From: Acidobacteriota bacterium
Lineage (GTDB): Bacteria > Acidobacteriota > Thermoanaerobaculia > Multivoradales > UBA5704
Direction of reading: 5' to 3'
Assembly (NCBI GenBank): GCA_040005235.1
Contig: JBDTZG010000008.1
Span: 71,096 to 135,095, forward strand
Length of the DNA: 64,000 nt
Shown here: positions 3,410-62,899 of the stretch, piece by piece
How positions within the stretch are numbered: position 1 is the first letter of the stretch
Layout: each line of letters starts with the position of its first letter
Made by a program: the position numbers and the translations under genes
Notes under the pieces: generated by a model
Seen by the model: only the letters and a program-made list of their open reading frames with translations
Databases searched by the model: none
What the model was told of the DNA's origin: nothing

Positions 3410-6400
3410 TTACCTGCTGCGCGAATGCCCCACCATCTCCTTTTCGAACGCTTTCCCCACCGACCCGTGCAGCTCGCGCCATTTGGCGAGCGCCTTGTCG
3501 AGACGGCCGCGCATCTCCTCGAAAACCTTGCGCTGGGGAGCGGTGGGGGCGGAATCGGCCCCTTCGAGATCGGATTCGAGGCCGGAGAGGACGGCGCCGA
3601 CGACCGAGAGGTCGAGGTCGCCGCCGCCGCTGTTGAGCTTCGCGAGGTCATCGCGGGTCGCTTTCGCGCCCTCGGCCAGACGTTTCGCTGCTTTGCGCTC
3701 GCCGGTGGCGAGTGGCGCGAGGCCCTTGTCGAAGGCGTCGATTTCTTCGAGCGCGTCCACCGTTTGGCCGAGGGCGTGGACGACCTCACCTGAGAATGCG
3801 TTGCCGGCCGCGAGGTCTTCTTCCGTCGCCGGGCTCCTCGGATCTTTCTTCACGAACAGCGGTTGTTCGAGCGTTGCGCCGTCTACGGTCAGGCGCAGGC
3901 GATAGCGGCCGGGGAGCACGAGCATTCCTTGCGGCAGGGTCGCCGTGTCGCGGTCGGGCACCGCGGCGATCGTGAAGTCGTAGTCGGTCGCCTTGGGCTG
4001 CGGGCCGCGCAGGTCCCACCAAAACCGGTTGTGCCCCACGTTCCTGGTGGGGACCGCGGGCGGCAGCAGCCAGCGGTCGGCGAAGTACTGCCGTGCGTCC
4101 GGCCTCCTGGGTGCCTCCGCGCTTGAAAATTTGCGGATGAGAATCCCTCCGGCGTCGAAGATCTCGATCTCGACCGGGCCTTTCGGGGTGCTCGGCAGAA
4201 AGTAATCGATCGCCACTCCGGCCGGCGGGTTCGGCGTGGTTGGAAATTCGGGCGGCAACGGCGTGTCGCGGTTCTCGTTCGGCGTGAGCCGAATCGCCAC
4301 GCTGGGCAGCGCGAGCGCCAGCCCCTGCTTGGCGCCGAACCCCGCACGCACCGCCGCGACGTCGTCGAGCACCCAGAGAGCCCGCCCCTGGGTGGCGATG
4401 ACCAGGTCGTCGCCCTTGACCAGCAGGTCGTTAACCCCCGTGCGTGGCAGGTTCAACTGAAGGGGGGACCAGTGCGTGCCGTCGTCGAACGAGACGAAAA
4501 CGCCTTGCCGGGTGCCGGCATACAGCAAGCCGGGGTGCTTCGGGTCGACGCGCACCACGTTCACCCAGGCCTCGGCGGGCAGGCCCGCCTCGGCGCGCCG
4601 CCAGTGGACGCCGAAATCGTGCGTCACGTAGAGCCAGGGCGAACGGTCGTCCAGACGGTGGCGGTCGATCGCCACGTAGGCGCTGCCGGGCTCGGAGCCG
4701 GCGTCGATCTGCGCCACCGCGCTCCAGGCAGGGAGGTCCTTGGGCGTCACGTCGGTCCAGTGCGCGCCGCCGTCTTGCGTCACGTGGATGCGCCCGTTGT
4801 CGGTGCCGACCCAAATCAAGCCGGAGGCGACGCGCGACGGGGCGATCGAGAAGATCGTGCCGTAGCCGCAGGCGGTGGTGCGCTCGATCGGCGGATCGAC
4901 CCGACCGGGCTCAGGCGTGCATCCCGGGGCGTTCGCCACCGCGCCGGTCAGGTCGGGGCTGATCGCCTCCCAGGTCTGTCCCTTGTCGAGCGAGCGGGAT
5001 AGCACCTGGGTCCCCTGATACAGCGCGTGCTGGGGGAGCCTCCAGAGGGCTTCGTCGGAGCCCAGTGCGTAATTTAGGGTGGACTGGGACTCTTCCGGCA
5101 GGACCGGCGGGCGCGGATCAATCGCGATCGGGGTGATCCAGGTGGTCCGGTTCGGCACTGTCGGCGGCCGGGTGCCGTAGGAAGAGACCGGCCAAGGGGA
5201 GACGTTCGCGACCCGGCCGGTGCGCGCGTCCCAGCGGCTGATCTTGCCGCCCAAACCGCTGCCGTAGACGATATTCGGATCGACCGGGTCCGGCAGATCG
5301 CCGTCGCGCTCGTCGCCGCCCACCGAATGCCAATCGCGGTAGGTGAGCTGGCCGTAGTTGCTGCGGGACGAGACCGAGACGGTGCCGCTGTCCTGCTGGC
5401 CGCTGTAGACGCGATAGGGGAATTGGTTGTCGATCCCCAGGCGATAGAACTGGCCCGTCGGCTGGTTGTACCAGGGGCTCCAGGTCTTTCCGCCGTTGAC
5501 CGAGACGGTGGTCCCCTGGTCGCTCGCGAGGATCATCCGCTCGGTGTGCGCGGGGTTGATCCATAAGTAATGGTAGTCGTCGCCGCCGGGCGAGCCCTTG
5601 ATGTAGACGAAGGTCTTCCCGCCGTCGGTCGATTTGCGGAACGACTGGCCGGGAAAATAGACCACGTTCGGATCGCTGGGATCGGCGAAGATGCGCCCGA
5701 AGTAGCTGCTCGGGATCGAGCGGCTCGCCATTTCGAGCGCCCAGGTGGCGCCGCCGTCGTCCGACCGGTAGAGTCCCGCGCCTTTTTGCGCGTCGACCGC
5801 GGCGTAGACGCGCCGGCCGTTGGTGGTCGGCGCCACAGCGAGGCCGATCTTGCCGAGCGGCTCGTCGGGAAGGCCGGTGCGCGGCGCCGCGGCCCAGCTC
5901 TTCCCTCCGTCGGTCGAGCGCCAGATTCCGCTGCCCGGGCCGACCTGCGGTACGTGATAGCCCTGCCAGGGATAGAGCCGGGTCTGCCAGAACGCGGCGT
6001 AGAGGACATCCGGCACTTCTCGGTCGGCGGAGATCTCGACCGCGCCGGTGTTCTCGTCGACGAACGCCACCCGGGACCAATTCTTGCCGCCGTCCTCGCT
6101 GCGATAGATGCCGCGTTCCGGATTCGGCCCGAACAGATGGCCGAGGGCGGCCACCAGCAGCACGTTCGGATTGCGCGGATCGACCCAGATCCGGCCGATG
6201 TGACGCGTGTCGGCGAGCCCCATCGAGACCCAGGTTTCCCCTTCGTCGTCGCTCTTCCAGACGCCGTTGCCGTCCATCACGTCGAAGCGGGTCTGAGTTT
6301 GGCCGCTGCCGACCCAGAGAGTCCGGTTAGCCGAAGGTCCGGGAACGACCGCGAGGGCTCCTACGGAAGAAAACGGCGCACGGTCCGAGAGCGGACGCCA

Positions 6401-46864: not shown

Positions 46865-48289
46865 ATGGGTTCGTCGCCCTACCTGCTCGCTCTGCTGGGT
46901 CTCGGAATCGGGGCGCTCCTCGCCTGGGGGATCGCGCGCTTGCTTGCCCGGGCGGAGCGCTCCACCCTCACCGAACGGCTGGCCGGGCGCGACCGCGAGG
47001 CGCTGGACCTGCGCGCCGAGCGGGACGAGCTGCGCCGGACCTCCTATGGCCTGCGCACGCGGGTGGCCGAGGCCGAGACCGCCCTCGAGCTGGAGCGCGA
47101 GAATGCGGGCGAGAAGCTGCGCCTGCTCGAAGGCGCGCGCGAGCAGCTCGGTCAGGCGTTTTCCGCCGCGTCGGCAGAAGCGCTGGCGAAGAACAACGAG
47201 GCGTTCCTTCATCTCGCGAAACAAAACCTGGAGGTCTTCCAGGAGCGGGCGCGCGGCGACCTGGCCGCGCGGGAGAAGGCGATCGGCGAGCTGGTCCGGC
47301 CGCTCTCCGATTCGCTCGGCAAGGTGGACGAGAAGATCCGCGAGCTGGAGGTGAGCCGCGCTCAGGCCAACACCAGCCTGACCGACCAGCTGCAACGCCT
47401 CGCGACCACTCAAGCGAGCCTGCATGTCGAGACCTCCCGCCTGGTCCAAGCGCTGCGCCAGCCGGCCACCCGCGGGCGCTGGGGGGAGATCCAGCTGCGC
47501 CGCGTGGTCGAGATGGCCGGCATGATCGAGCACTGCGACTTCGAGCAGCAGCCGGTCGGCGGCTCGATCGAAGAGGGGCGGGTGCGTCCCGATCTGACCA
47601 TCAAGCTGCCGAACGAGAAGACCATCGTGGTCGATTCCAAAGCGCCTTTGGAATCGTATCTGGCGGCGATCGAGACCGTCGATGAAGAGGCCCGCCGTCT
47701 CCATCTGGTGAGGCACGCGGCGCAGGTGCGCGCTCATCTCAACAAACTTTCGGCCAAGTCGTACTGGAGCCAGTTCGAGCCGGCGCCCGAATTCGTCGTC
47801 TTGTTTCTCCCTAGCGAAGCCTTTTTTTCGGCGGCGCTCGAGCAAGACCCGAGCTTGATCGAGGCGGGGGTGGAGCAGAAGGTGATCCTTGCCACCCCCA
47901 CGACCCTGATCGCGCTTCTGCGCGCCGTGGCCTACGGCTGGCGCCAGGAGCAGATGACCAAGAACGCGCTCGAAATCAGCAAGCTGGGCCGGGTGCTCCA
48001 CGACCGGCTGCGGACGCTCGCCGGACACTTCGGCGCGCTTTCCGGCGGCCTTGAAAGGGCGATCGACGCCTACAACAAAGCCGTCGGCTCGCTCGAAACC
48101 CGGGTGATGCCGGCGGCGCGGAAATTGAAAGAGTACGGCGCTACCTCCGGCGAAGAGATCGAGGAGCTGGCGCCGATCGACCGGATTCCGCGGGCGCTGC
48201 AAACGCAGCTGCATTTCTTTCCGCCGTCGGACGCCGACGATGCGGAGGCGGACGAGCTCGGAGAGCCGGAAGACAAGGAAACGCGATGA
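46865..48289 (+). CDS. rmuC: DNA recombination protein RmuC
   Basis: TM + coiled coil, RGRWGEIQL, RPD..I.LP, VDSKAP, EFVVLFLPSE, ATPTTLIALL. Confidence 0.95.
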   Translation: MGSSPYLLALLGLGIGALLAWGIARLLARAERSTLTERLAGRDREALDLRAERDELRRTSYGLRTRVAEAETALELERENAGEKLRLLEGAREQLGQAFSAASAEALAKNNEAFLHLAKQNLEVFQERARGDLAAREKAIGELVRPLSDSLGKVDEKIRELEVSRAQANTSLTDQLQRLATTQASLHVETSRLVQALRQPATRGRWGEIQLRRVVEMAGMIEHCDFEQQPVGGSIEEGRVRPDLTIKLPNEKTIVVDSKAPLESYLAAIETVDEEARRLHLVRHAAQVRAHLNKLSAKSYWSQFEPAPEFVVLFLPSEAFFSAALEQDPSLIEAGVEQKVILATPTTLIALLRAVAYGWRQEQMTKNALEISKLGRVLHDRLRTLAGHFGALSGGLERAIDAYNKAVGSLETRVMPAARKLKEYGATSGEEIEELAPIDRIPRALQTQLHFFPPSDADDAEADELGEPEDKETR

Positions 48290-49578
48290 ACCGAGATGAG
48301 CTGCTCGCCGCATTCCACGAGGTCCGCGGATTGTCCCGGGAGCTGGTGCAACCGCTCGCGCCGGAGGTCTGGCGCATTCAGTCGATGCCTGATGTAAGCC
48401 CTCCCTGGTGGAACCTCGGACATACGAGCTGGTTTTTCGCCCGCAACGTCCTCGCCTCTTGGGGGCGCGAGGTGGCGGAAGACGGCCGGCTCGAATTCGT
48501 CCTCAACTCCTATTACGAATCGGTCGGGCCGCGGATCGAGCGCCACCGCCGCGGCTCGCTCACCCGGCCGGGCAACGACGAGGTGCTCGCTTACCGGGCT
48601 TCCGTCGACGGCCGGATGGAGACGCTGATCGCCGACGTGCCGGAGAGCGATTGGGAGAGCTTCGAGTTCCTGGTGAGGACCGGCCTGGAGCACGAGCAGC
48701 AACACCAGGAGCTGCTGCTCACGGAGGTCAAGAACATCCTCGCGAACGATCCTCCCGAGCTGCGGGCGATCTATGCGCCGCTCACGCCGGAAGCCGCACC
48801 GGGAGGCGGAAACTCCACCTGGATCGGCTTCGAGGGCGGCCTGGTCGAGATCGGCAACGTCGAAGGGGGCTGGTGCTGGGACAACGAGCTGCCGGTCCAT
48901 AAGAGCTGGCTCGAACCGTTCGCCCTGGCGAACCGCCTGGTGACGGCCGGCGAGTACATCGAGTTCATCGAAGACGGCGGCTACGAAAAGCCGCTGCTCT
49001 GGCTGGCGAACGGCTGGGGCCAGGCGAAGCAGCAGGGCTGGCACGCGCCGCTCTATTGGCGGACCTGCTGGGACACGGGGGATGAGTGGGCGGCGTGGAC
49101 GTTGTCCGGCGAGCGGAGGGTCGACCGGAAAGAGCCGGTCTCCCACCTCAGTTTCTACGAAGCCGACGCCTATGCGCGCTGGAAAGGGGAGACTGATACA
49201 GCCTGGAAGGGCGCCCGCCTGCCCACCGAGCGCGAATGGGAGCACGGCGCGCGCCTCGGCGGATTCGACCCCGCCGTTGGCAATCATTTGGAGAATCGGG
49301 CATTTCATCCGCTCCCCGCGCCCGCGGGCGAGGGCCTGTCCCAAATGGCCGGCGATCTCTGGGAATGGACGACCAATCATTACGAGCCCTATCCGGGCTA
49401 CGCACCGTTCGACGGCAACCTGATGGAGTACAACGGGAAGTTCATGGACAACCAGCGCGTGCTGCGCGGCGGCTCGTGCGCGACTCCGCGCTCGCACATC
49501 CGGCCCAGCTACCGCAATTTCTGGCCGGCCGACACCCGGTTTCAGCTCACCGGGATTCGGCTCGCCAAGGGAACATAA
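48286..49578 (+). CDS. egtB: Ergothioneine-pathway sulfoxide synthase (DinB + FGE-sulfatase domains)
   Basis: QSMPDVSPP, GHTSWFF, NSYYE, HEQQHQELL, RLPTE.EWE, EYNGKFM, VLRGGS, YRNF. Confidence 0.9.
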   Translation: MNRDELLAAFHEVRGLSRELVQPLAPEVWRIQSMPDVSPPWWNLGHTSWFFARNVLASWGREVAEDGRLEFVLNSYYESVGPRIERHRRGSLTRPGNDEVLAYRASVDGRMETLIADVPESDWESFEFLVRTGLEHEQQHQELLLTEVKNILANDPPELRAIYAPLTPEAAPGGGNSTWIGFEGGLVEIGNVEGGWCWDNELPVHKSWLEPFALANRLVTAGEYIEFIEDGGYEKPLLWLANGWGQAKQQGWHAPLYWRTCWDTGDEWAAWTLSGERRVDRKEPVSHLSFYEADAYARWKGETDTAWKGARLPTEREWEHGARLGGFDPAVGNHLENRAFHPLPAPAGEGLSQMAGDLWEWTTNHYEPYPGYAPFDGNLMEYNGKFMDNQRVLRGGSCATPRSHIRPSYRNFWPADTRFQLTGIRLAKGT

Positions 49579-52638: not shown

Positions 52639-53508
52639 ATGAAACCGCGGGCGCCCGTTCCCTTCGCCGGACTGTTTCTCGCCGCTTTGCTCGGCGCGGC
52701 CTGCGGCAAGAACGGCGGCTCGCCGACGAGTCCGCCGCCACCGAACCCGGCGATCACGCGAGCGAACGTCATCGCGGCGCTCTTCTTGGGCGAAGGTCCG
52801 CTCCGGGCGGCCCAAGGAGCCACCTGCCTCGACACCGGCATTTGGCGCGCCTTTCCACGCGGCAGCCGCATCCGGGTTCGGCTGAGCACTGCGCTTTCAA
52901 ATGGCGAGAGAAACAACATCGACGGCTTCCTTGCCGATTTTCGCGGCCTGATCGCCGGAGCCTACCAACTGGTGATCGAGACCACGCCGGAAGAAGATCC
53001 GATCCCCGGCTTGCTCGAAGTGACCAATACCTCGCTCAACGACGCAGGCGTCGACGCCTTCTGCCGCCCCGGCACGGGAGGGTGCGCCAAATACGTCTTT
53101 CAAGCGCCCGGCATCCTCGCCGGTTCGCGAACCGTCGCGCGCCATCAGTTCGGCGGCAACGTCCACAACCACGAGCTGGTCCACGGCATCCTGGGTGTCT
53201 GCCACTTGGACGGGTTCCAGATGCCCGACGCTTTGATGACCAACCCCAACAGTTCGAGCGTCGGCACCTTGAACGGCGCAGAGCGGCAGGCGATTCAGGC
53301 GGTGATGCGCTCGGGGCTCTCGGGAGGCGCCACCCGTGCCGACTTCGAGCGGCTCGGCCTGATCGATCCGGCCGGCACGAGCGGAACGAGCGGAACGCTG
53401 TCGAGCCCGGGTTTTGGAGCGGGCGGCGGAGCCGACGACCCGCCGATCCTGCGCAAGAATCGACGCGAAGGAGGAGGAGCGGCGGTGCGCGAGAGAGAGC
53501 GGCAATAA
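52639..53508 (+). CDS. Lipoprotein with zincin metallopeptidase motif
   Basis: Lipobox-like GAAC, Pro linker, HELVHGILGVCH, downstream Met-turn-like DALM. Confidence 0.7.
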   Translation: MKPRAPVPFAGLFLAALLGAACGKNGGSPTSPPPPNPAITRANVIAALFLGEGPLRAAQGATCLDTGIWRAFPRGSRIRVRLSTALSNGERNNIDGFLADFRGLIAGAYQLVIETTPEEDPIPGLLEVTNTSLNDAGVDAFCRPGTGGCAKYVFQAPGILAGSRTVARHQFGGNVHNHELVHGILGVCHLDGFQMPDALMTNPNSSSVGTLNGAERQAIQAVMRSGLSGGATRADFERLGLIDPAGTSGTSGTLSSPGFGAGGGADDPPILRKNRREGGGAAVRERERQ

Positions 53509-53544
53509 GGGCTCGCCCTACCCGTTCGGGCGGTTCCAGCTCGC

Positions 53545-53981
53545 AGCACGCCACCTTACAGTAGGACTCCGATCCCGAGGAGTCGCGATGCCTGAGGAAA
53601 CGAGCTCGAACGGCCGGCATGTCTTGTTGAGTACCCTCTCCTTCGCGGTCTGTTTTGCCGCCTGGGGCTTGATCTCGGCCTTCGCGCCCCGGTTTCGCGA
53701 GCAGTTCGGCCTCTCGGCGACACAGACCGCCTTCCTGGTCGCCGTGCCGGTGTTGCTCGGGGCGCTTGCGCGCATTCCGGTCGGTCTGCTCGCCGATCGC
53801 TTTGGCGGGCGGTGGGTGTTCTCGATCCTGATGCTCGTGGTCGCCGTGCCGGCGTGGCTCGTGCCGGGTGCGACGACCTACCGGTCGCTCCTGGTCGTCG
53901 CGTTCTTCTTAGGTCTCGCCGGTTCGTCGTTTCCGGTCGGGGTCGGCTACGTGTCGCGCTGGACGCCGCCCGCCCGCCAGG
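53545..53981 (+). repeat. Direct repeat copy 1 (437 bp): narK upstream region and 5' end, truncated
   Basis: Reads as identical to 60583-61019 (offset 7038); a further 33 bp upstream (53512-53544) matches with 6 mismatches. Confidence 0.93.
53588..53981 (+). pseudogene. 5' fragment of the narK-like MFS gene (about 131 codons)
   Basis: MPEETSSNGRHVLL...SRWTPPARQ, the same as the start of 60626..62899, then a switch to unrelated sequence. Confidence 0.88.
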
Positions 53982-54345
53982 CCGCCACCGCCCCCCGCCT
54001 GCGCCCCTCCGAGACCCGCGCCTGCCTGCATAGCGGCCGGTTCGGCGTCGAACTGACCTGGAAGAAGGGGAACGGCGAGACCGGCCCCGGCATCGTCGCC
54101 GTGCCGACCTCCGCCTCGGCAAGCCTGTTCTCGCTGATTGTGCCCGACAACTGGTCGGCGCTGGTGAAGCTGCAAGACGGTTGCGCCGCGACGGCCAAAT
54201 GCTGGGTCTACAGCGCACGAGCGACCTCGAAGTCGAGATCCGCGTTCGTGACTCTCTGACCGGCATCGAAAGGACCTACCGCAAACCGCCAGGTGCCGCA
54301 CCGTTCGGACTGCGCGACAGGTTGGCGCTTCCCTGCGCGCCGTAG
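53982..54345 (+). pseudogene. Frameshifted 3' remnant of a secreted-protein gene carrying a Cys-containing module
   Basis: CLHSGRFGVELTW..G..G.G..NWSALVKLQDGC..WVYSA, then in another frame TSDLEVEIRVRDSLTGIERTYRKPPG..DRLALPC* (TAG 54343-54345). Family recalled from memory, not searched. Confidence 0.6.
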
Positions 54346-54549
54346 GATCTGCGCGGCGGGTAGTTGTGTCGGCAGGAGGCTCGATTCTGCCCGTCTCAAC
54401 TACTCTATTTGTCAAGCCGATACTCGAAGAGTACGATCTCGATCGTACACCTGACCTGAGTGGCGGTTAATTCTCGCGTTTCCTTTTGGGGCTCTCTAGA
54501 GAAGTTCTAGCTATTTCCAATAGCGGGCTCGAGCTTAAAGGGGACAGGC

Positions 54550-57500
54550 ATGCCTGGATCGAAGCAGCTTTTTCGACGGACCTACGCCGCACCCTTTGGC
54601 CGCTATGTCGCCGGCTCGGAGGCCGAGCCGCCGGCCAACGAGGTTCTGATCGGGCGTGCAGGCCAGCGTGCCTACTTCATCGAAATCCTCCTTCGTGCAG
54701 GAAAACGCGGCGCCTTTCTCGTGACCGGCAACCGCGGCGTCGGTAAGACTAGTTTCGTTCGTTACTGTCTTGGTGAGTACGACGAGGAGGTCTTCGAGCG
54801 CTTCTTGCGTAGCGACGTAGGGAGAGCTGTCTTCTGGGACCGACTGTTTGTCGCGCTACTCGGCGTGGTCGGGCTGTGTATCGCGTTGATGGTCTCAGAG
54901 CTGCTCGAGATCCTCGTCCTCGCCGGCAACCGACAGGGCGGCTCCGGTGCGAACACCCCCTCTCTACTCGGCTGGATCATGATCGCTCCTGTCGTGGTGG
55001 CCTGCCTCTATCCGATGCTCTATGCCTGGGAGCTCTTCTCGGAGCTTTTCCGCTATGCACGACCCACATGGTTGAAGCACCACTCGTCGATCATCAGCGC
55101 ACTGCTCACGCTCACTCTCGCGGCGCTCATCTGGCGATTTCCCCCGTTCGGTGCGCCCGCGCTCTCGATCGGTATCCTGTTTCATGTACTTGGGGGAACG
55201 TTCCTGCTTATGACGATCAAGAGGTACGGCTCGATAAATTGGCTTTGGTTCGCGCCTTTAATTCTGCTGCTGCTCACTCCTTGCATCGCGCTACCCATCG
55301 ATAGGTCAGGGAGCCCGGAACCAAATTTTCTTGCCCTCCTTGGATTCGGATTCTCTTTTGCCGCAGTCGCGGCGTGGATCACAGGCGCTGAGCACAAAAA
55401 AAAGAAAAATCAACTGGACGAAGATCCGAAGGCTCACCAGACTTACTTCGCGATCGCTATCGGATCCACTTTCGTCGCTTTTCTTTGCATCTTTTATTCC
55501 GTTCGGAACAGCTCTCTAACCGTCTTGGTCTCGTCGATCATATTTATCCTCGGTAGCTTCTTTAGTCACAAATATCACTCCGATAAACTAGTCGGCGATG
55601 GAGCGCTTAAGCCATCGACTGGCAACCCGAAAGCCATTGTTCTCCTCAGTTTCAAGGCTGTCCTCTCGATTGTCGTATGCCTGCATCTTCTCCACCCTGT
55701 GATTTCGCTATTTTCTCCGGTCAGGACAGTTGACGATTTAACATCCTCAATCCGCCCTGCGGGTTCTCTCTGGTACGTTTCAGGACGTCACGAGCACATA
55801 TTGGGGGGGAATGTAGGGCCGTGCTGGTCCCGGAGCGATCTCGGGGCGATGGATGCGCCAAAAGAAGAGCAACTCTGGATCCTCGCTCTGTGGCTGACCG
55901 CATTTTTTCTCTATCACATCGAGTACCAGTGGATCGTCCGGCCATTCCTGGCGGCGCGATCCAGCCTACCGATCGTTACACACCGACCTCCGGGCGAGGG
56001 CGAAGGGAACGGCGGCCCCGACGATCGTCGGAGGCTCCGAGGTCTGGCCCGCATGACAATCCCCTGGGTTCTCTATCGGGCGTGGCTGCCTGCAATCACG
56101 GTTTCGGTCAACCTCGGGTTCGAAACGCTCGATCACCGTCGGGTGATTCAGGCCATGCTGGTGGGACTTCAAGCGCGCTATCGCCGACTATTTCTCTCGT
56201 GGAATAGTGCCCTTGCAAACCTGGCCAGGACGATCGGCTTGCTTCTGCTGCTTACTCTGGTCGGCCTCGTTGGGGGCCGTTGCTTCAAGCTCCCAGAGTT
56301 GCCACGTCCCGCCTATACAGCCCAGCTTGATATCGCCGAGCGAGACAACTACCGACATCTCTGCGAGCTTCTCGAAGGTGCTCAGACCGGGCCGGGAGTG
56401 ACCAATCTCGTCTGCACACTTCCCTGGGGCGACGCCGCGGTGCGAGTTCTCTACTTCAATATCACAGAAGGCTTAATTTGGAAAGACTATCCTGCGCTTA
56501 GGAACCACCTGCTCCTCAAAGTCCTCCCCCTACAGATACACCCTTGGCCAGAAGCCGATCGTCCGTTTCTGACAGAAGGCATGAGCTTTCGCGTCTACCA
56601 CTTACTCATCTTCGTAGTTTTATTCATCGGTTCACGTTGGATTCTCCGTCGACTGCCCTTCCTGCCTTATCGAGATGTTCAGCGAAAGATCGACGCAATT
56701 CTGGATAGTTTGACAGCTAGCACCAGCGTCACCTCCCGGGTCGGGCGGTGGCAACCTGCACAGTGGCTCGAGGGCTTCATGATCGGCGAAAGAGTCCGTC
56801 AGATCAACCAGGAGCCTTTTGATCCTCGCTCGGTAGAATTCCTCTTTCTTCACATCCTTGAAGAGATTCAAGAAGCCGCCATCCGGCTTCCAGGTGCGCG
56901 CAATCAGCGCTTCAGTCTTCCGGTACCCGAGATTACGTTCGTCTTCGATGAACTTGACAAGCTCGGCACACGAGTCGGGTTAACCGACGAGATCAGCGTA
57001 GAGCCGCAGCAGTCCGAGATTCTCAACGCGGAGCGACGACGCTCGCTTGAACTTCACAAATTATTGGCTGATTTAAAAAATTTACTCGCTTCGGCCCCTG
57101 CCAAATTCATTTTCGTGGGTGGCCGAAATCTCCACGATGAGTGGCTCGCCGATCAGACCTCACGCTTGCCACTTCTCACGAACATATTTAGCGCTGAGGT
57201 CTACCTGCCGACCTTGCTCACCGACCGAAGTGAGCGCGAGGAACCTACAACTCTTGACCACAATATATTTCGTTTCGTTGAAGCTTCAATGGATCGTGCG
57301 CAACGGATTTACAAGCTCTCTTCGCACCGCCGACGTCAGCCGGCATTTAGTCTTCAGCTCGACCAGTGTGAGCCTGACACTTTTAATGATGACCGTTCAC
57401 CTGAGACGAGATTCGAGAGAGGAGTAAAAGGCCTGAATATTTTAACGCTGGAAGGAACGCCGGCTCCTGGCACTGACGATCTCGCGAGCGACTTCATCGA

Positions 57501-60495
57501 GTTTCTGGCATACCGGAGCATGGGTAACCCAAAACGCCTTCGCGAGCTTCTTGGCACGTTCGTTCGACCATTATGGCGTGTGGTGCCTCATAAGAAGGAA
57601 GCTTTTCGCTGCGATCACGTTCTTGTCTTTGAAGACGACGAACGTTTTCGGATTCAGCTGATCTCCCGGGTCTACCGGCACTTGCACCGAACGTTCGCAC
57701 GCGGGTTTACCCGTCGCGATGACAAGATGACTGTCTCGGTCTTTTACCTGTCGGATTTTCTTTTCAAGTTCCACCGCCGTGCTTTCTCCTGGGCGAACCT
57801 TGAGCGGGTAGAAGACATGGTACATATCCACCGGGCGCCCGATCTGCGTGAGGTTCTAGAGACTATGGTGGAGCAGTGGTCAGAGCGCTTCCTGCACCCA
57901 ATTCGCAACGGAATGTACGACTTCCGATTCCGGAGCGAGGTAGCCAGAGAAGTAGATTACATCTCGCGCCATTCCCCGGCCGAGATGGCAGCGTTCAACT
58001 TCACGCTCGATGAGTCGCAGGCGCTCAAGTCGGTTTATGAAACCTCGATCAAGAGACTTAGGGAGGGTAACGGAAAAGAAATTCAAGATCTCGTCTCAGG
58101 CTTGGGAGAGCTCTATGAATTCGACCAAGAGTACGAGACGGCTCGGCTCTATTATCGCCAGGCGACATCTCTGCTCGACCTCGAACTACGAGCAGTCACT
58201 GGTGGTAGCGAGTTCCTCGAGAGACAATCGCCGATGCTTCAGATTGTGGGCGGAGCACCGCCCGGTCCGGCCAACGCTCGCCGGTACCTCACATGGGGAA
58301 TTGCTCGGTTGCGCTTGATCCTTCAGGTCGGAATGACCTTTGAGTTGTCTCGGAACTACGAGCGCGCCGGTGTAGAGTACGGAAACGCATCGTCGCTCGC
58401 TCGCTCACTATTGCTGGCACTCCTCGACGAGGAGGGACGATTCGAGGCTGTTCATTTCGGGATCGCTCATGACCAGCAAAAAACACCCGAGAATCGGCTT
58501 CACGTGCTCAAACACCTAAACCTCGTATTTCAGCCGGTCTTTGCGGAAGCTTGGGTCTCGGAGAAGCTCGCTGGAGCCGTCGACACAAGCGTGACTTTGG
58601 TTGAGAGCGAGCTTTGGCAACTGCGGCGGATTCTGCCGTTCGTTAGGGACGCCCGGGTTGAAGAGGCCGAGAGCGCGGTCGTTGTTCGGCACAGCAACTT
58701 CGCACTCATCGCCGCGGAGTTGCACGGTAAAGCCGGCGACCTACTGTTCTTTAAGGGCCGTAGTCTTGTCTCGAAGGCGAACATCATTCACTGGGCGGAG
58801 AAGTACGACCCGCAGTCTCCGCGCCATGGTGCTGAAGGCTATCTCTTGAGGGCACATTACCATTACGCTGTGGCGCTCCACGAGTTGAGGCGTTTTACCG
58901 CGTACCGATTGACCAGCTCGAAGAGAAAGCTCAACATTCTAGAGGAAAGCCCAGAACGGCCGCTTTGGGACACCTTCGAGCCGGGCTCCTGGCCCGACTA
59001 TGTTCTCCGATCATTGGGCGGTACTCTGAACGACTTCGCCGAGGTGATGTTGGGTCGAGTCTCCCTCTTTGGCCTTCTACAATGCCTTAAAGAACGTACA
59101 CCCCTTCGCAGGGCTTTGGATACAGTCGAAGGGGATACCAGACCGAAGCACGATGCCTCGGCGGACCTTATTCTCAGTTCTGAGGTTCCTCCCAAGACAG
59201 ATGCATCGGGAAACCCTGTCAAGGATCCGCGTGCGATTGACGAATTGTTTGCGGCCTTTTCACGTTGGATGGAGCAGCTCTCGGACAAGCGAGGCGCCGA
59301 GGACAAGGTCGGCGGTTACCAGATCCGAATTCCTCTCGGGGAGTGGATTCTGGAGGCAGGAACACTCAGTGGGTGGCTCGGTCGCTGGAACGAAGAGTGG
59401 TCGGGCTCGGACGATAGAGTGCGGCTCGTCAAGTTCGAGGCGGAAGGTGGTCGGCCGCGGCACGACGATCTAGATCGCATTTGTGTTTCCCTAAGCATAA
59501 TGCTCATTGGTGCGCGCTGCCTGGAACTGGCAGGCTACGTTGAGGATTCCGCACGGGAGTTCCTCAAGATCGCGGACACAGCAGCAACCTACCTGTGGTG
59601 GTTCCGTTCGGTTCAAGAATTGGCTGAGTGGAATTCGAAGAGGCCCAGCGGTGTTCGTAACGTAGTCTTGAGTATAGACCAGGAACTCCTCACCGCGGAG
59701 GTCTGCGGTCACGGCTTCTGGCTTTACCTCGGGAATGTCGCACTCTACGCACTTGAGCGAGCCGATCGGCTCTTCCGTCGTGGCCGAAAGGCGGCGGAGC
59801 GCAGAGAGTATCTTGTCGGTGACCGGATTCCAGTCGATGCGCTGGTTGTGGCTTGCTCGCTAGGGCTCGTCTCGGCTCGGCCAACCAAGAGCAATGCCAG
59901 AACTGCCGCCCGACTAAGAAGACTGATTCGGTCTTGGGTGGGTCGTGTCGAGGGCAAGAAACTTGATGGTAGCCCCAACTCACATCGCGAGCTGCTCGAG
60001 AATTGCCTCCAACGTCACAGCTACCCGATGCTCGCGCGGTTAAAAGGGCTCAAGATCTTGATCGACCACGAGATCCTCAATCCGTCCGACAAAACGGTTC
60101 CGCGAGCCTTCGACGTTCCGGCGGTGACCGAACGCCTCGTTGAGCTATCCGAGAGTTTCAATTCCTCGCTTCACTTTACTCCTGCGCAGGTTGGCACCAC
60201 GGCGGCCCTGGCTTATCTACTTAGCGATGGGGACGAGAAGAAACGCGAATATCTTCGCCGAGTAGCACAACGAGAGTTGATGCGCAGCGAGGAGATGTAT
60301 ACCCTTCGGAGAGGGTTCTATGAGAATATCTCGGACCTCTACTATCTATTCGACGACCTCAACGATCGCCAGATGCACTTCGGCCACGCCTTGCAGATGG
60401 CATCGAGCGAACTGGTCTCGCTTCTTCTCAGCCTGGTCCAAGAGCCCGACAGGAAGCGGATCGGTTCGACGCCGCTGGTCCTGAGAGAGGTATAG
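54550..60495 (+). CDS. Giant (1981 aa) membrane-embedded KAP-like P-loop NTPase with TPR-like C-terminus
   Basis: LIGR (aa 33-36), Walker A GNRGVGKT (aa 60-67), about 12 hydrophobic helices, Walker B ITFVFDELDK (D800), KFIFVGGR, GNP (aa 992), then helical TPR-like repeats; AT-richer than the flanks. Confidence 0.8.
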   Translation: MPGSKQLFRRTYAAPFGRYVAGSEAEPPANEVLIGRAGQRAYFIEILLRAGKRGAFLVTGNRGVGKTSFVRYCLGEYDEEVFERFLRSDVGRAVFWDRLFVALLGVVGLCIALMVSELLEILVLAGNRQGGSGANTPSLLGWIMIAPVVVACLYPMLYAWELFSELFRYARPTWLKHHSSIISALLTLTLAALIWRFPPFGAPALSIGILFHVLGGTFLLMTIKRYGSINWLWFAPLILLLLTPCIALPIDRSGSPEPNFLALLGFGFSFAAVAAWITGAEHKKKKNQLDEDPKAHQTYFAIAIGSTFVAFLCIFYSVRNSSLTVLVSSIIFILGSFFSHKYHSDKLVGDGALKPSTGNPKAIVLLSFKAVLSIVVCLHLLHPVISLFSPVRTVDDLTSSIRPAGSLWYVSGRHEHILGGNVGPCWSRSDLGAMDAPKEEQLWILALWLTAFFLYHIEYQWIVRPFLAARSSLPIVTHRPPGEGEGNGGPDDRRRLRGLARMTIPWVLYRAWLPAITVSVNLGFETLDHRRVIQAMLVGLQARYRRLFLSWNSALANLARTIGLLLLLTLVGLVGGRCFKLPELPRPAYTAQLDIAERDNYRHLCELLEGAQTGPGVTNLVCTLPWGDAAVRVLYFNITEGLIWKDYPALRNHLLLKVLPLQIHPWPEADRPFLTEGMSFRVYHLLIFVVLFIGSRWILRRLPFLPYRDVQRKIDAILDSLTASTSVTSRVGRWQPAQWLEGFMIGERVRQINQEPFDPRSVEFLFLHILEEIQEAAIRLPGARNQRFSLPVPEITFVFDELDKLGTRVGLTDEISVEPQQSEILNAERRRSLELHKLLADLKNLLASAPAKFIFVGGRNLHDEWLADQTSRLPLLTNIFSAEVYLPTLLTDRSEREEPTTLDHNIFRFVEASMDRAQRIYKLSSHRRRQPAFSLQLDQCEPDTFNDDRSPETRFERGVKGLNILTLEGTPAPGTDDLASDFIEFLAYRSMGNPKRLRELLGTFVRPLWRVVPHKKEAFRCDHVLVFEDDERFRIQLISRVYRHLHRTFARGFTRRDDKMTVSVFYLSDFLFKFHRRAFSWANLERVEDMVHIHRAPDLREVLETMVEQWSERFLHPIRNGMYDFRFRSEVAREVDYISRHSPAEMAAFNFTLDESQALKSVYETSIKRLREGNGKEIQDLVSGLGELYEFDQEYETARLYYRQATSLLDLELRAVTGGSEFLERQSPMLQIVGGAPPGPANARRYLTWGIARLRLILQVGMTFELSRNYERAGVEYGNASSLARSLLLALLDEEGRFEAVHFGIAHDQQKTPENRLHVLKHLNLVFQPVFAEAWVSEKLAGAVDTSVTLVESELWQLRRILPFVRDARVEEAESAVVVRHSNFALIAAELHGKAGDLLFFKGRSLVSKANIIHWAEKYDPQSPRHGAEGYLLRAHYHYAVALHELRRFTAYRLTSSKRKLNILEESPERPLWDTFEPGSWPDYVLRSLGGTLNDFAEVMLGRVSLFGLLQCLKERTPLRRALDTVEGDTRPKHDASADLILSSEVPPKTDASGNPVKDPRAIDELFAAFSRWMEQLSDKRGAEDKVGGYQIRIPLGEWILEAGTLSGWLGRWNEEWSGSDDRVRLVKFEAEGGRPRHDDLDRICVSLSIMLIGARCLELAGYVEDSAREFLKIADTAATYLWWFRSVQELAEWNSKRPSGVRNVVLSIDQELLTAEVCGHGFWLYLGNVALYALERADRLFRRGRKAAERREYLVGDRIPVDALVVACSLGLVSARPTKSNARTAARLRRLIRSWVGRVEGKKLDGSPNSHRELLENCLQRHSYPMLARLKGLKILIDHEILNPSDKTVPRAFDVPAVTERLVELSESFNSSLHFTPAQVGTTAALAYLLSDGDEKKREYLRRVAQRELMRSEEMYTLRRGFYENISDLYYLFDDLNDRQMHFGHALQMASSELVSLLLSLVQEPDRKRIGSTPLVLREV

Positions 60496-60582
60496 GGAAG
60501 GCCGCTCACAGCAGGGATCTCGGGTCAGAACCTCCCTTGCGCACGCCGCCTCGCCCCACCCGTTGGGGCGGTTCCATGTCAG

Positions 60583-61019
60583 AGCACGCCACCTTACAGT
60601 AGGACTCCGATCCCGAGGAGTCGCGATGCCTGAGGAAACGAGCTCGAACGGCCGGCATGTCTTGTTGAGTACCCTCTCCTTCGCGGTCTGTTTTGCCGCC
60701 TGGGGCTTGATCTCGGCCTTCGCGCCCCGGTTTCGCGAGCAGTTCGGCCTCTCGGCGACACAGACCGCCTTCCTGGTCGCCGTGCCGGTGTTGCTCGGGG
60801 CGCTTGCGCGCATTCCGGTCGGTCTGCTCGCCGATCGCTTTGGCGGGCGGTGGGTGTTCTCGATCCTGATGCTCGTGGTCGCCGTGCCGGCGTGGCTCGT
60901 GCCGGGTGCGACGACCTACCGGTCGCTCCTGGTCGTCGCGTTCTTCTTAGGTCTCGCCGGTTCGTCGTTTCCGGTCGGGGTCGGCTACGTGTCGCGCTGG
61001 ACGCCGCCCGCCCGCCAGG
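60583..61019 (+). repeat. Direct repeat copy 2 (437 bp), part of the intact narK-like gene
   Basis: Matches 53545-53981. Confidence 0.93.
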
Positions 61020-62899
61020 GCTCCGCGCTGGGGATCTACGGCCTGGGCAACATCGGCCAATCGGCCGCCGTGTTCCTGGGGCCGCTGGTCGCCGCCGCCT
61101 GGGGCTGGCAGCCGGTATTCAAAGGGATGGCGGTCGTGCTGGTCGTCTGGGGGATCGCGTTCGGCCTGCTGGCCAAAGACGCGCCCGCCAAGGCCGCGCC
61201 GAAGGGGCTGGGTGCGATGCTTTCGTTGCTCGCCCGCGAGCGGCTCGCCTGGGTGCTCTCGCTATTTTATTTCCTCACCTTCGGCGGCTTCGTCGCCTTC
61301 TCGATCTACCTGCCGTCGCTGCTCAAAGACCAGTTCCGCCTGACTCCGGCCGATGCCGGTTTTCGCGCCGCCGGTTTCGTCGTGCTCGCAACTCTGATGC
61401 GGCCGGTCGGCGGCTGGTTGGCGGATCGGATCGGCGGCGCGCGGGTGCTCTCGTGGGTGTTTGCCGGGGTCGCGCCGTTCGCCCTGCTGCTCGCCTGGCC
61501 AAGAATGGTGCCTTTTACCGTCGGCGCGCTCGGCTGTTCGTTCCTGCTCGGCCTCGGCAACGGGGCGGTGTTCAAGCTGGTGCCGCAGTATTTCCCGGCC
61601 GACACCGCGACCGTCACCGGCCTGGTCGGCGCGATGGGCGGCCTCGGCGGCTTCTTCCCTCCGCTCTTGCTGGGCGTCTTCCGCGACCGGCTGGGTGCCC
61701 TCTGGCCGGGATTCTTGCTGCTTGCGCTCACCGCGCTCCTTCTCGGCTGGCTCAATCGGCGGGTGTTTCTCTCCAAGGAAGACGACCGGACCCTGCCGCC
61801 CGGGCTCGCGCGCGCGGCGGATCGCCTGAAGGCCGGCTCGGTCGCAACGTTGATCACCGGCTTTCTCGTCGCCGGAATCGTCGTCGGCTCGCGCAATCTC
61901 CAGCATTTCGATCCGGCGCTTGTGGTCTACACCTTCGCGACGGTCTTTGCGACCTGGGGTGTCGCCTATCACTACGCGGTCTGGTTGCAAAAACCGCCGA
62001 CCCAAATGTACTGGCGCCGCGGCTGGCAACTGCTCCGGAGCCGCGGCGTCTTCCGCTCGCTCGCCGGCCTGTCGCGGACGGCGGCCACCCACCTGGTCGG
62101 CCAGACCTTCCTGCGCAAGCGGTCGAAACTCCGCTGGTGGATGCACCAGCTGCTGTTCTGGGGCTGCCTGCTCGCGGCGGGAGTGACCTTTCCGCTCGTC
62201 TTCGGCTGGATTCACTTCGAGAGCGCCGCGGGCGATCTGAGCCTCGCGAGCGAGACCGGCCGCTACGTCACGTACCTGTTCGGCTTTCCCGCCTTCTCGT
62301 TCGCGCTCGGAACGCCGCTCGCCTGGCTGATCTTCCATGCGCTCGACGTCGCGGCGATCCTCGTCCTCGCCGGAATCGCGCTCGCGCTGTGGCGGAGGCT
62401 GGGCGACCGGGGGGCGCTCGCGGTGCAGTCGTTCGCGATGGATTTTTTGCCGCTGATCCTCCTCTTCGCGATCTCGGTGACCGGCCTGGCGCTTACCGTT
62501 TCCACCCTCTTCTTACGTGGCGGTTTGTACCCGTTTCTCGCGCTGCTCCATGCGATCACGGTGATCGCCGCGCTCCTCTATCTGCCGTTCGGCAAGCTGT
62601 TCCACGTCTTCCAGCGCCCGGCGCAGCTGGGGGTGAAGCTCTACCAGCAGGCGGGAGAGGAAGGGGAGGGGGTAGCTTGCGCCCGCTGCGGCGAGCGCTT
62701 TGCCTCGCGGATGCACCTCGACGATCTCGCCCAGGTTCTGAGCGAGCTGGGTTTCGACTATCGGATCGACGGGCGAACCGAAGGCAAGAGCGAGCCGCCC
62801 GGGCACTGGCAGGCGCTCTGTCCGGTCTGCAAACGGATCTCGCTGGGCCAAGCGCAGATGGCGGCTTTTTCGGTCGCCCGCGGAGAGTTTCGTGGCTGA
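60626..62899 (+). CDS. narK: NarK/NasA-family nitrate/nitrite MFS transporter fused to a NarI-like membrane domain with C-terminal CxxC..CxxC
   Basis: GAGGAG SD; GALARIPVG, GIYGLGNIG, YFLTFGGFVAF, MRPVGG.LAD, GNGAVFKLVP, GGLGGFF; then HQLLFWG, LHAITV..LPFGKLFH, CARC...CPVC. Confidence 0.85.
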   Translation: MPEETSSNGRHVLLSTLSFAVCFAAWGLISAFAPRFREQFGLSATQTAFLVAVPVLLGALARIPVGLLADRFGGRWVFSILMLVVAVPAWLVPGATTYRSLLVVAFFLGLAGSSFPVGVGYVSRWTPPARQGSALGIYGLGNIGQSAAVFLGPLVAAAWGWQPVFKGMAVVLVVWGIAFGLLAKDAPAKAAPKGLGAMLSLLARERLAWVLSLFYFLTFGGFVAFSIYLPSLLKDQFRLTPADAGFRAAGFVVLATLMRPVGGWLADRIGGARVLSWVFAGVAPFALLLAWPRMVPFTVGALGCSFLLGLGNGAVFKLVPQYFPADTATVTGLVGAMGGLGGFFPPLLLGVFRDRLGALWPGFLLLALTALLLGWLNRRVFLSKEDDRTLPPGLARAADRLKAGSVATLITGFLVAGIVVGSRNLQHFDPALVVYTFATVFATWGVAYHYAVWLQKPPTQMYWRRGWQLLRSRGVFRSLAGLSRTAATHLVGQTFLRKRSKLRWWMHQLLFWGCLLAAGVTFPLVFGWIHFESAAGDLSLASETGRYVTYLFGFPAFSFALGTPLAWLIFHALDVAAILVLAGIALALWRRLGDRGALAVQSFAMDFLPLILLFAISVTGLALTVSTLFLRGGLYPFLALLHAITVIAALLYLPFGKLFHVFQRPAQLGVKLYQQAGEEGEGVACARCGERFASRMHLDDLAQVLSELGFDYRIDGRTEGKSEPPGHWQALCPVCKRISLGQAQMAAFSVARGEFRG

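Follow-up and report, generated by a model that had tools for sequence, protein, structure and literature searches.

The window analysed here, a 64,000-nucleotide (nt) stretch of an Acidobacteriota genome (contig JBDTZG010000008.1, positions 71,096 to 135,095 of the forward strand), carries towards its end a single giant open reading frame (ORF) of 1981 amino acids (aa), and the protein that it encodes represents an undescribed, large and unannotated family of membrane-integrated STAND-like ATPases. In a structure model, the Walker A and Walker B motifs of this protein lie together in one AAA+/STAND-type fold that is joined from three predicted cytoplasmic pieces, while the transmembrane (TM) helices, 12 in all, fall into two separate insertions between these pieces. 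The architecture as a whole, comprised of the three-piece core, a 10-helix membrane block, a membrane hairpin, a GxP lid, a helical module and a TPR-like solenoid, is very probably correct as modelled.

The giant ORF, a single open frame by the ORF listing and by translation, stands alone as a gene and is present in a single copy in its own genome. It is a real gene rather than a chance frame, with about 80 full-length relatives and an invariant Walker B motif among them. Its length and its AT-rich composition relative to its neighbours had been pointed out in an earlier note made from the DNA letters without database searches, and both hold. The same note had placed Walker A (GNRGVGKT) and Walker B (FVFDELDK) about 730 residues apart, and the measured spacing from K66 to D800 is 734 residues. 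Only about 32 residues precede the NTPase core, leaving no room for an N-terminal effector domain.

The model of aa 1-1180 was built with AlphaFold2 on an alignment of 44 family sequences, and the assembly of the core rests on co-variation in these 44 sequences (mean predicted local distance difference test score, pLDDT, 73.8; predicted template modelling score, pTM, 0.76). Five parallel β-strands (54-59, 515-521, 794-800, 852-856 and 882-885, with a pLDDT of 86-92 on the first four) form an ASCE-type P-loop core, with helix 1 at aa 66-79, lid helices at 975-1002 and, after the lid, helices and short strands at aa 1005-1027. The series of elements proposed in the earlier note, running from Walker A through about 10 helices to the ITVSVNLG strand (aa 514-521), then through 2 further helices to Walker B, FIFVGGR and the GNP motif, is in place throughout the model. 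So is its central claim, that the split halves form one P-loop fold: the note had named a predicted structure that leaves Walker A and Walker B apart as the outcome that would count against it, and the model brings the two together.

A search of 48,161 representatives of the PDB with VIA-align repeatedly fitted whole NTPase domains onto model residues 36..887, mostly with 145-188 residues aligned. The best match is the Orc1/Cdc6 structure 2qby_A (Z 13.4, root-mean-square deviation (rmsd) 3.2 Å, 164 residues), followed by TnsC (Z 12.4-12.7), RdrA (Z 12.1), MalT (Z 11.1), NRC2 (Z 10.7), ZAR1 (Z 10.6), CED-4 and BrxC (Z 10.5 each), Avs3 (Z 10.5 over 213 residues, reaching model residue 1066), the STAND-TPR protein 6mfv (Z 10.3 on the core) and the D2 domain of NSF (Z about 10). 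The alignments with TnsC, Avs3, CED-4 and 2fna extend to residues 1035-1096 (1035-1066 for the first three), at an rmsd of 8-9 Å. Foldseek returned no match of the N-terminal model to the PDB at E ≤ 0.001, which is to be expected because the domain is broken into three pieces, and a family profile compared with PDB sequences found nothing below E 0.26.

The two membrane insertions are evident both in hydropathy and in the model. On the Kyte-Doolittle scale, 9 strong hydrophobic segments occur between aa 101 and 381, followed by further segments at 558-576 and 681-699. The model places the helices of the first insertion at 95-128, 139-170, 179-196, 203-224, 231-247, 256-289, 294-317, 322-346, 360-388 and 437-471. 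In the second, helix 2 of the core (529-549) passes after only four residues into TM11 (554-578), and a loop of about 100 residues precedes TM12 (682-701), which leads back into the Walker B piece. Lys and Arg residues are concentrated in the predicted cytoplasmic loops (171-178, 224-230, 280-296, 340-359, 472-514 and after 702); the loop charges obey the positive-inside rule and the TM counts are even (10 and 2), so the predicted topology is self-consistent, with all three pieces of the core inside the cell. Because the membrane blocks are threaded into the core, the helices that flank the nucleotide site would continue straight into the membrane. Two Cys residues of the predicted outside loop, C605 and C622, are both present in 37 of the 44 aligned sequences, a degree of conservation that fits a periplasmic disulphide. 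An hhalign comparison of TM helices 1-5 with 6-10 detected no internal duplication, and a search of the ESM Atlas with aa 90-480 gave no usable match.

The tail of helical repeats described in the earlier note is borne out by a second model, of aa 1040-1981 (942 aa; pLDDT 85.4, pTM 0.91), which is all-helical except for a small β insert. Foldseek matched it to Ctr9, Ski3 and IFT-A at E of about 3e-4, and VIA-align to the TPR domain of KLC2 (Z 12.0), RapH (Z 11.6) and 6mfv (Z 9.1); only TPR or solenoid proteins are among the matches from either program. Since such Z scores are common for helical repeats, the tail is read as a TPR-like solenoid and no more. Comparison of its two halves by hhalign again detected no internal duplication. 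The absence of a recognizable nuclease or other enzymatic effector, also claimed earlier, agrees with the searches by Pfam, Foldseek and VIA-align, none of which found a nuclease or other enzyme fold. Within the last 50 or so residues, Y1932, L1933, D1935, D1936, D1939 and H1943 are invariant in all 44 aligned sequences. The resulting C-terminal signature, Y-L-x-D-D-F-N-D-x3-H-F, was found by regular expression in 116 of 159 full-length proteins and is still recognizable in a distant clade of 22-28% identity (P0083-P0090).

In 5.8 billion clustered proteins there are 91 relatives, of which about 80 are about 2000 aa long and match over their full length with 28-55% identity; where they are named at all, their labels are "hypothetical", "ATP-binding protein" or "ATPase domain protein", with one TPR repeat protein. 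Residues D800-E801-L802-D803-K804 of Walker B are invariant in 44 of 44 aligned sequences, as are R859 and G992, while G60, R62, G63, G65 and K66 of Walker A and P994 of the lid are each found in at least 90% of them, and N521, L522, G523 and F524 at the end of strand 2 are invariant or nearly so. Expressed as mean pairwise identity in the same alignment, the three P-loop pieces score 0.53, 0.50 (with a length fixed at 65 aa) and 0.61 (Walker B region, 791-900), the module at 1041-1175 scores 0.62, and the first and second halves of the solenoid score 0.44 and 0.36. The membrane block (0.25; 236-494 aa in length), the outside loop (0.21; 49-277 aa) and the insert at 1521-1640 (0.19) are far more variable.

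The split core extends beyond these 44 close relatives. The distant clade shows the same arrangement, with Walker A near residue 65, an hhhFDELDK motif 230-560 residues further on and a variable number of hydrophobic segments, 2 to about 10, in the stretch that separates the two motifs. Three of its members, P0088 (1648 aa), P0091 and P0085, have 2, 4 or about 10 such segments and make up a natural series of insertion sizes; across the superfamily, the number of inserted helices ranges from 2 to about 12. Another relative, P0082 (1508 aa), carries a precomputed Pfam assignment to the rve integrase core (PF00665, PF13683), possibly through a transposase insertion or a fusion. A census of 201 family proteins, 76 of which were truncated or motif-variant and were skipped, left 125 with all three motifs in order, and a crude hydropathy count on these gave modal numbers of 10 TM helices in the first insertion (56/125) and 2 in the second (100/125). 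When 1.84 billion representatives were searched with a profile of aa 703-1400, 1534 proteins scored at E ≤ 0.001; at E ≤ 1e-30 there were 951, a number that counts clusters at 50% identity. The 150 matches listed are mostly of 1500-2600 aa, and the shorter ones look like fragments. In 185,579 species genomes (one genome per species), about 202 stretches encode a relative. The family occurs in Acidobacteriota, Myxococcota, Alpha- and Gammaproteobacteria, Nitrospirota and Bacteroidota, with named hosts that include Thermoanaerobaculia, Holophagales, Sorangium cellulosum So ce56, Plesiocystis, Enhygromyxa, Tateyamaria, Tropicimonas, Methylococcales, Thiotrichaceae, Marinicella and Thalassomonas; the distant form is found in Magnetobacterium, Nitrospinota, Bacteroidota, KSB1 and Caldithrix.

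Membership of the STAND class is suggested by the motifs. The hallmarks of STAND proteins are the Walker motifs, a GR-x-x-Q helix before strand 1, an Arg after strand 4, a GxP lid, a winged-helix domain after the lid and C-terminal repeats, and in the known members these repeats serve as the sensor. The same sensory role is given to them in the available portions of a 2026 preprint on the Tmn system and of a survey of STAND proteins from the same year. The giant protein contains Walker A and B, R859 after strand 4, a GxP lid (G992 and P994) and C-terminal repeats; the coupling of a STAND-like GxP motif to a TPR tail in the earlier note was thus well founded, with G992 and P994 conserved and the tail TPR-like. 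Pfam provides a partial match to AAA_16 (22.4 bits against a cut-off of 32.6, E 1.9e-4, profile positions 2-78 only). All 14 relatives scanned also match this family, 2 of them above the cut-off and always through its N-terminal part, a restriction that follows from the splitting of the domain; for each of the 15 members, AAA_16 is the closest relation in Pfam, with weak matches to nSTAND1, NACHT, ATPase_2 and KAP among the 14. NCBIfam gave nothing meaningful, and neither Pfam, PADLOC nor the fold searches revealed an effector domain in the giant protein. No counterpart was found for the first, 10-helix insertion. The literature searched, including the available part of the STAND survey, holds no account of this family or, KAP and YobI aside, of a core of STAND type into which membrane helices are inserted, and the supplementary tables of the survey could list the clade.

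Table 1. Features of the giant gene and of the insert that carries it; nucleotide positions are those of the window.
Feature	Position	Strand	Basis
Whole gene, 1981 aa	54550..60495	+	91 relatives, single copy
Sigma-70-like promoter candidate, about 110 nt ahead of the start codon	54409..54437	+	consensus match only; region has 3 sites where 1.8 would be expected
P-loop piece 1: VLIGRAGQ helix, strand 1, Walker A, helix 1 (aa 33-94)	54646..54831	+	AAA_16 match, model, conservation
Walker A GNRGVGKT (aa 60-67)	54727..54750	+	
Membrane block 1: 10 predicted TM helices between helix 1 and strand 2 (aa 95-472)	54832..55965	+	hydropathy, model
P-loop piece 2: strand 2 ITVSVNLG and helix 2 (aa 489-553)	56014..56208	+	model, conservation
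Membrane hairpin TM11 (aa 554-578)/TM12 (aa 681-702) with predicted outside loop (aa 579-680) containing C605 and C622	56209..56655	+	hydropathy, model
P-loop piece 3: Walker B, strand 4 FIFVGGR with R859, strand 5 (aa 703-900)	56656..57249	+	motifs, model, structural alignments
Walker B FVFDELDK (aa 797-804)	56938..56961	+	
FIFVGGR (aa 853-859)	57106..57126	+	
Helical lid with GNP, and conserved helical or winged-helix-like module (aa 1041-1175)	57250..58074	+	conservation, structural alignments
GNP motif (aa 992-994)	57523..57531	+	
Putative TPR-like α-solenoid (aa 1176-1981) with variable insert (aa 1521-1640)	58075..60492	+	model, TPR-type matches
C-terminal signature LYYLFDDLNDRQMHF (aa 1929-1943)	60334..60378	+	invariant residues in 44/44
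Upstream repeat copy: 76-nt leader and first 131 codons of a narK-like MFS gene	53512..53981	+	sequence comparison, unitig depth
Low-GC foreign insert, 6568 bp, with the giant ORF as its only substantial gene	53982..60549	+	GC, empty site in G001
Downstream repeat copy, start of the intact narK-like gene	60550..61019	+	778-aa frame 60563-62899

The giant gene is a recent horizontal acquisition and belongs to the accessory genome. Its GC content is 0.53-0.58 compared to 0.66-0.70 in the flanks, and its GC at third codon positions is 0.63 compared to 0.79-0.91 in eight neighbouring genes. The same holds for 28 of 29 homologous loci, in which the GC of the giant gene lies below that of the flanks by a mean of 7.4 points and by up to 17 points, in hosts with a flanking GC of 35% to 71% (loci L002-L038). 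In the window, the insert is bounded by a 470-bp direct repeat, the last 437 nt of which are identical between the two copies, and in a genome of the same genus (G001) a Na/Ca exchanger gene, a gene called here gene X, a full-length narK and narG are contiguous and represent the empty site. A homologue is present in only 4 of 41 genomes, comprised of its own and 40 relatives, and the relatives' copies are 49-58% identical. In two runs of one study, the depth of the insert equals that of its flanks (14.4 and about 9.8), and the depth of the repeat unitig (35.1 and 21.1) is roughly double; together, these values support a genome with two copies of the repeat and a single insert. The graph of unitigs over 53545-60612, which reads flank, doubled repeat, insert, doubled repeat and flank, fits the integrated form and, equally well, an intact chromosome together with a circle of 7038 bp, which would carry the giant gene and the narK fragment. 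The insert contains no integrase or replication gene.

Several further features of this locus deserve mention. A chimeric frame of 281 aa (53414-54259) leads through the upstream repeat copy into the insert. Of the DNA that originally lay upstream of the intact narK-narG genes, no more than 76 nt are left to them, and the insertion may therefore have altered the control of these nitrate-respiration genes. A gene for a 910-aa MacB/FtsX-type permease (3521-6253 of locus L072, G003:C58:1500-9500) lies instead between gene X and a narK remnant in another genome of the same genus, G003; this intergenic site varies within the genus. Gene X itself (52639-53508) has no Pfam match. Further upstream in the window, 5-8 kb from the giant gene, 46865-49578 encodes RmuC and a DinB_2-FGE-sulfatase protein, and the latter gene is followed by two GT2 glycosyltransferase genes and the Na/Ca exchanger gene.

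As for function, the giant protein may be an inner-membrane, stand-alone signalling ATPase that serves in biological conflict and uses its membrane block as the effector, a tentative assignment that draws on its architecture, conservation and mode of inheritance. It would act as a one-protein switch against phages or mobile elements, like other STAND proteins, in which the solenoid would keep the ATPase off until a cytoplasmic trigger binds. Nucleotide exchange would then lead to oligomerisation of the cores, and the membrane blocks, gathered or re-packed in this way, would form an assembly that conducts ions or disturbs the membrane and arrests the infected cell. Such a mechanism would be akin to those of Tmn or PifA and, in concept, to the plant resistosomes. 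In its favour, the ATPase and tail are conserved (0.36-0.62) compared to a variable membrane block (0.25), and a conserved ATPase and tail combined with a variable membrane module, as in antiviral STANDs, suits an exchangeable membrane output.

A broader proposal is that the giant protein is the founding example of a widespread, unnamed superfamily of "membrane-threaded STANDs", in which an NLR-like core is spliced into a multi-helix membrane domain and oligomerisation, set off by a trigger, directly builds or gates a conduit, as a one-polypeptide counterpart of the resistosome channels, with the C-terminal D-D-x-N-D...H residues acting as a latch or metal site. This generalization is speculative and would have to be regarded as possible rather than likely.

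A number of observations weigh against the conflict function. The giant protein matches no PADLOC family at E ≤ 0.01, and 14 relatives gave only P-loop noise; version 2.0.0 of PADLOC presumably includes a model for Tmn. In the searches made, the membrane block has no match to a channel or transporter fold, the VIA-align listing being comprised of P-loop matches only. An all-against-all comparison of 2521 flanking ORFs found no conserved neighbour, the largest cluster occurring in 9 of 60 loci and representing a generic family. In 31 loci, 25 of 207 ORFs within 4.5 kb of a homologue match a PADLOC model at E ≤ 1e-5, and by Pfam most of these are generic domains of housekeeping proteins such as TopA, DprA, ABC ATPases, sigma-54 activators and an amylase. 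The Pfam scan took in 93 ORFs from the first 17 loci together with the 32 nearest ORFs of the other 16 (L018 having ORFs in both sets), and conflict- or mobile-type neighbours occur in only about 6 of the 31 loci, namely a Z1 domain, an ISL3 transposase and an integrase at L015, a caspase-FGE-sulfatase protein at L016 (L016:19904-21625), an nSTAND1-ankyrin protein at L028 (L028:4517-8683), AAA_14-DUF4143/PDC-S01 at L036, PDC-S70 at L014 and AAA_27 at L004. Searches of 72,556 plasmid records, of 50,697 phage records and, by two peptide patterns only, of the IMG/VR contigs turned up no homologue. Finally, the invariant polar residues of the tail and the deep conservation of the C-terminal signature are no less compatible with a fixed partner, or with a catalytic or latch site, than with a sensor engaged in an arms race. 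With neighbours that are not conserved and are mostly housekeeping genes, a role in defence is plausible, and not more. The defence reading of the earlier note stays tentative: the gene is accessory, patchily distributed and horizontally acquired, but it has no PADLOC match, its relatives have no conserved partner and their conflict- or mobile-type neighbours are few. Of these neighbours, the caspase-FGE-sulfatase and nSTAND1-ankyrin proteins are typical of conflict systems and lie 1.5-3.5 kb from two of the homologues.

The same neighbourhoods, which are mostly metabolic or housekeeping in nature, would suit an accessory membrane machine of non-immune function: an ATP-regulated channel, transporter or remodelling ATPase, whose 12 helices would be gated by a metabolite or protein bound to the solenoid, for example in the ion homeostasis or envelope maintenance of soil and sediment bacteria. 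The lack of a PADLOC match and of homologues on the phages, plasmids and viral contigs searched would be accounted for in this way, as would the strong conservation of the tail and its C-terminal signature down to relatives of 22-28% identity, and the available part of the STAND survey describes non-immune clades interspersed with those of defence. Against such a machine stand a distribution as patchy as 4 of 41 genomes and 49-58% identity within a genus, a foreign composition in nearly every host and the lack of a conserved operon partner; moreover, no transporter family or fold was detected, nor any internal duplication of the kind common in transporters. It is held to be a minority prospect, on the unlikely side.

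If the membrane face were instead the sensor, the direction of signalling would be reversed. In such an outside-in receptor, the outside loop and membrane block would register a signal from the envelope or the exterior, for instance a phage that adsorbs or injects, damage to the membrane or the toxin of a neighbour. The ATPase would relay this signal inward, and the solenoid would serve as the output scaffold, recruiting or releasing a conserved partner in the cytoplasm. The outside loop and the membrane block are indeed the most variable regions, compared to a better conserved solenoid with invariant polar residues; the pair C605/C622 is consistent with a periplasmic disulphide, and the four-residue gap from helix 2 to TM11 would allow events outside to reach the nucleotide site. 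However, no partner gene is conserved nearby, the known STAND proteins sense through their C-terminal repeats, and the loop of some members, at only 49 aa, is small for a sensor domain. An arrangement of this type is considered improbable.

It is very unlikely that the family is a divergent member of KAP (PifA, Kidins220) or YobI (Tmn) and shares their mechanism, despite a certain resemblance. In KAP proteins taken from the genomes, the TM pair follows the FNAW strand and precedes the DDLDR motif, with the TM centres 95-120 residues past Walker A (in one example, L081, Walker A is at 89, the TM segments are at 189 and 210 and Walker B is at 264); this order disagrees with the available part of the Tmn preprint, in which the KAP helices are placed outside the P-loop domain. 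The TM helices of YobI lie between Walker A and B according to the same text, which also states that PifA excludes phage T7. The Walker B motif hhhhD-E-L-D-K further resembles D-D-L-D-R of KAP, GNPKRL resembles NPRxxKRF, and two relatives have weak scores for KAP_NTPase, although these scores (17.5 and 15.9 bits, the best among the relatives) are below the cut-off of 20. At the level of sequence the relation fails: the giant protein has no match to KAP_NTPase (PF07693) or YobI-ATPase (PF20693) at E ≤ 1, its own genome contains no member of the former at 1e-10 or of the latter at E ≤ 0.01, and AAA_16 remains the best relation in all 15 proteins scanned. Alignment by hhalign of the family to 11 KAP sequences from genomes of the same phylum (G088 being left out) covered 56 columns around Walker A only, with a probability of 6.8% at full length, 74% for piece 1 alone and 0.2% for pieces 2 and 3 from Walker B to the lid, where GNPKRL against NPRxxKRF was the best, insignificant, local match. 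The second insertion is thus KAP-like in position only, after strand 2 and before Walker B, and by sequence the giant protein is a member of neither KAP nor YobI/Tmn. The KAP-type insertion with an additional block that the earlier note had read here accordingly holds for position only, and the Pfam check that the note proposed gave the partial match to AAA_16 and none to KAP_NTPase.

A mis-assembled or decaying gene can scarcely account for these data: although the genome apparently derives from soil metagenome data and each end of the insert lies in a repeat that unitigs of short reads do not resolve, the open frame extends over 5.9 kb and has full-length relatives at E = 0, and the insert is covered at the depth of its flanks, without differences by a single 6661-nt contig in run X1 and by three contigs in run X2.

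Should the giant protein be an immune sensor, it would represent a new effector logic for bacterial NLR-like immunity, missed by current defence finders, and if it is not, a new type of ATP-coupled membrane device. In either case, members with between 2 and about 12 inserted helices occur naturally and could serve in studies of the coupling between nucleotide state and a membrane domain, at a time when, judging from the available part of the Tmn preprint, membrane-integrated P-loop switches are only now becoming understood.

Among known systems, Orc1/Cdc6 and TnsC resemble the reassembled core most closely in structure, but these are soluble DNA-binding proteins of 13-18% identity; the likeness is at the level of fold only and has no bearing on function. 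The STAND-TPR proteins (Avs/AVAST, MalT and 6mfv) share the relation to AAA_16, the fold, the Arg after strand 4, the GxP motif and a TPR-like tail, whereas here membrane helices interrupt the core, a feature of no STAND family found in the literature searched; the giant protein also has no N-terminal effector domain and no PADLOC match to Avs. The KAP proteins (PifA and Kidins220/ARMS) have a TM pair in the same topological place as TM11/TM12 and a similar Walker B (D-[DE]-L-D-[KR]) and NP[KR] lid motif, but lack the 10-helix block that here separates helix 1 from strand 2, and their Pfam model is not matched here. A further parallel in design is with Tmn/YobI, likewise a membrane P-loop NTPase encoded by a single gene, whose P-loop domain contains the TM helices and whose long arms of helical repeats lie in the cytosol. 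According to the available part of the 2026 preprint, its core is AAA+-like, as in NSF, its arms sense a phage protein, its decamer exports Mg2+ and it is the first membrane-integrated P-loop switch with a proposed mechanism. Tmn has only 2 such helices compared to the 12 predicted here in two insertions of a protein of about 2000 aa, and the core described here bears motifs of the STAND/AAA_16 type (the GRxxQ helix, the Arg after strand 4 and the GxP lid). With its two insertions, 12 helices and 800-residue solenoid, the family appears as a more extreme version of the membrane-integrated P-loop switch.

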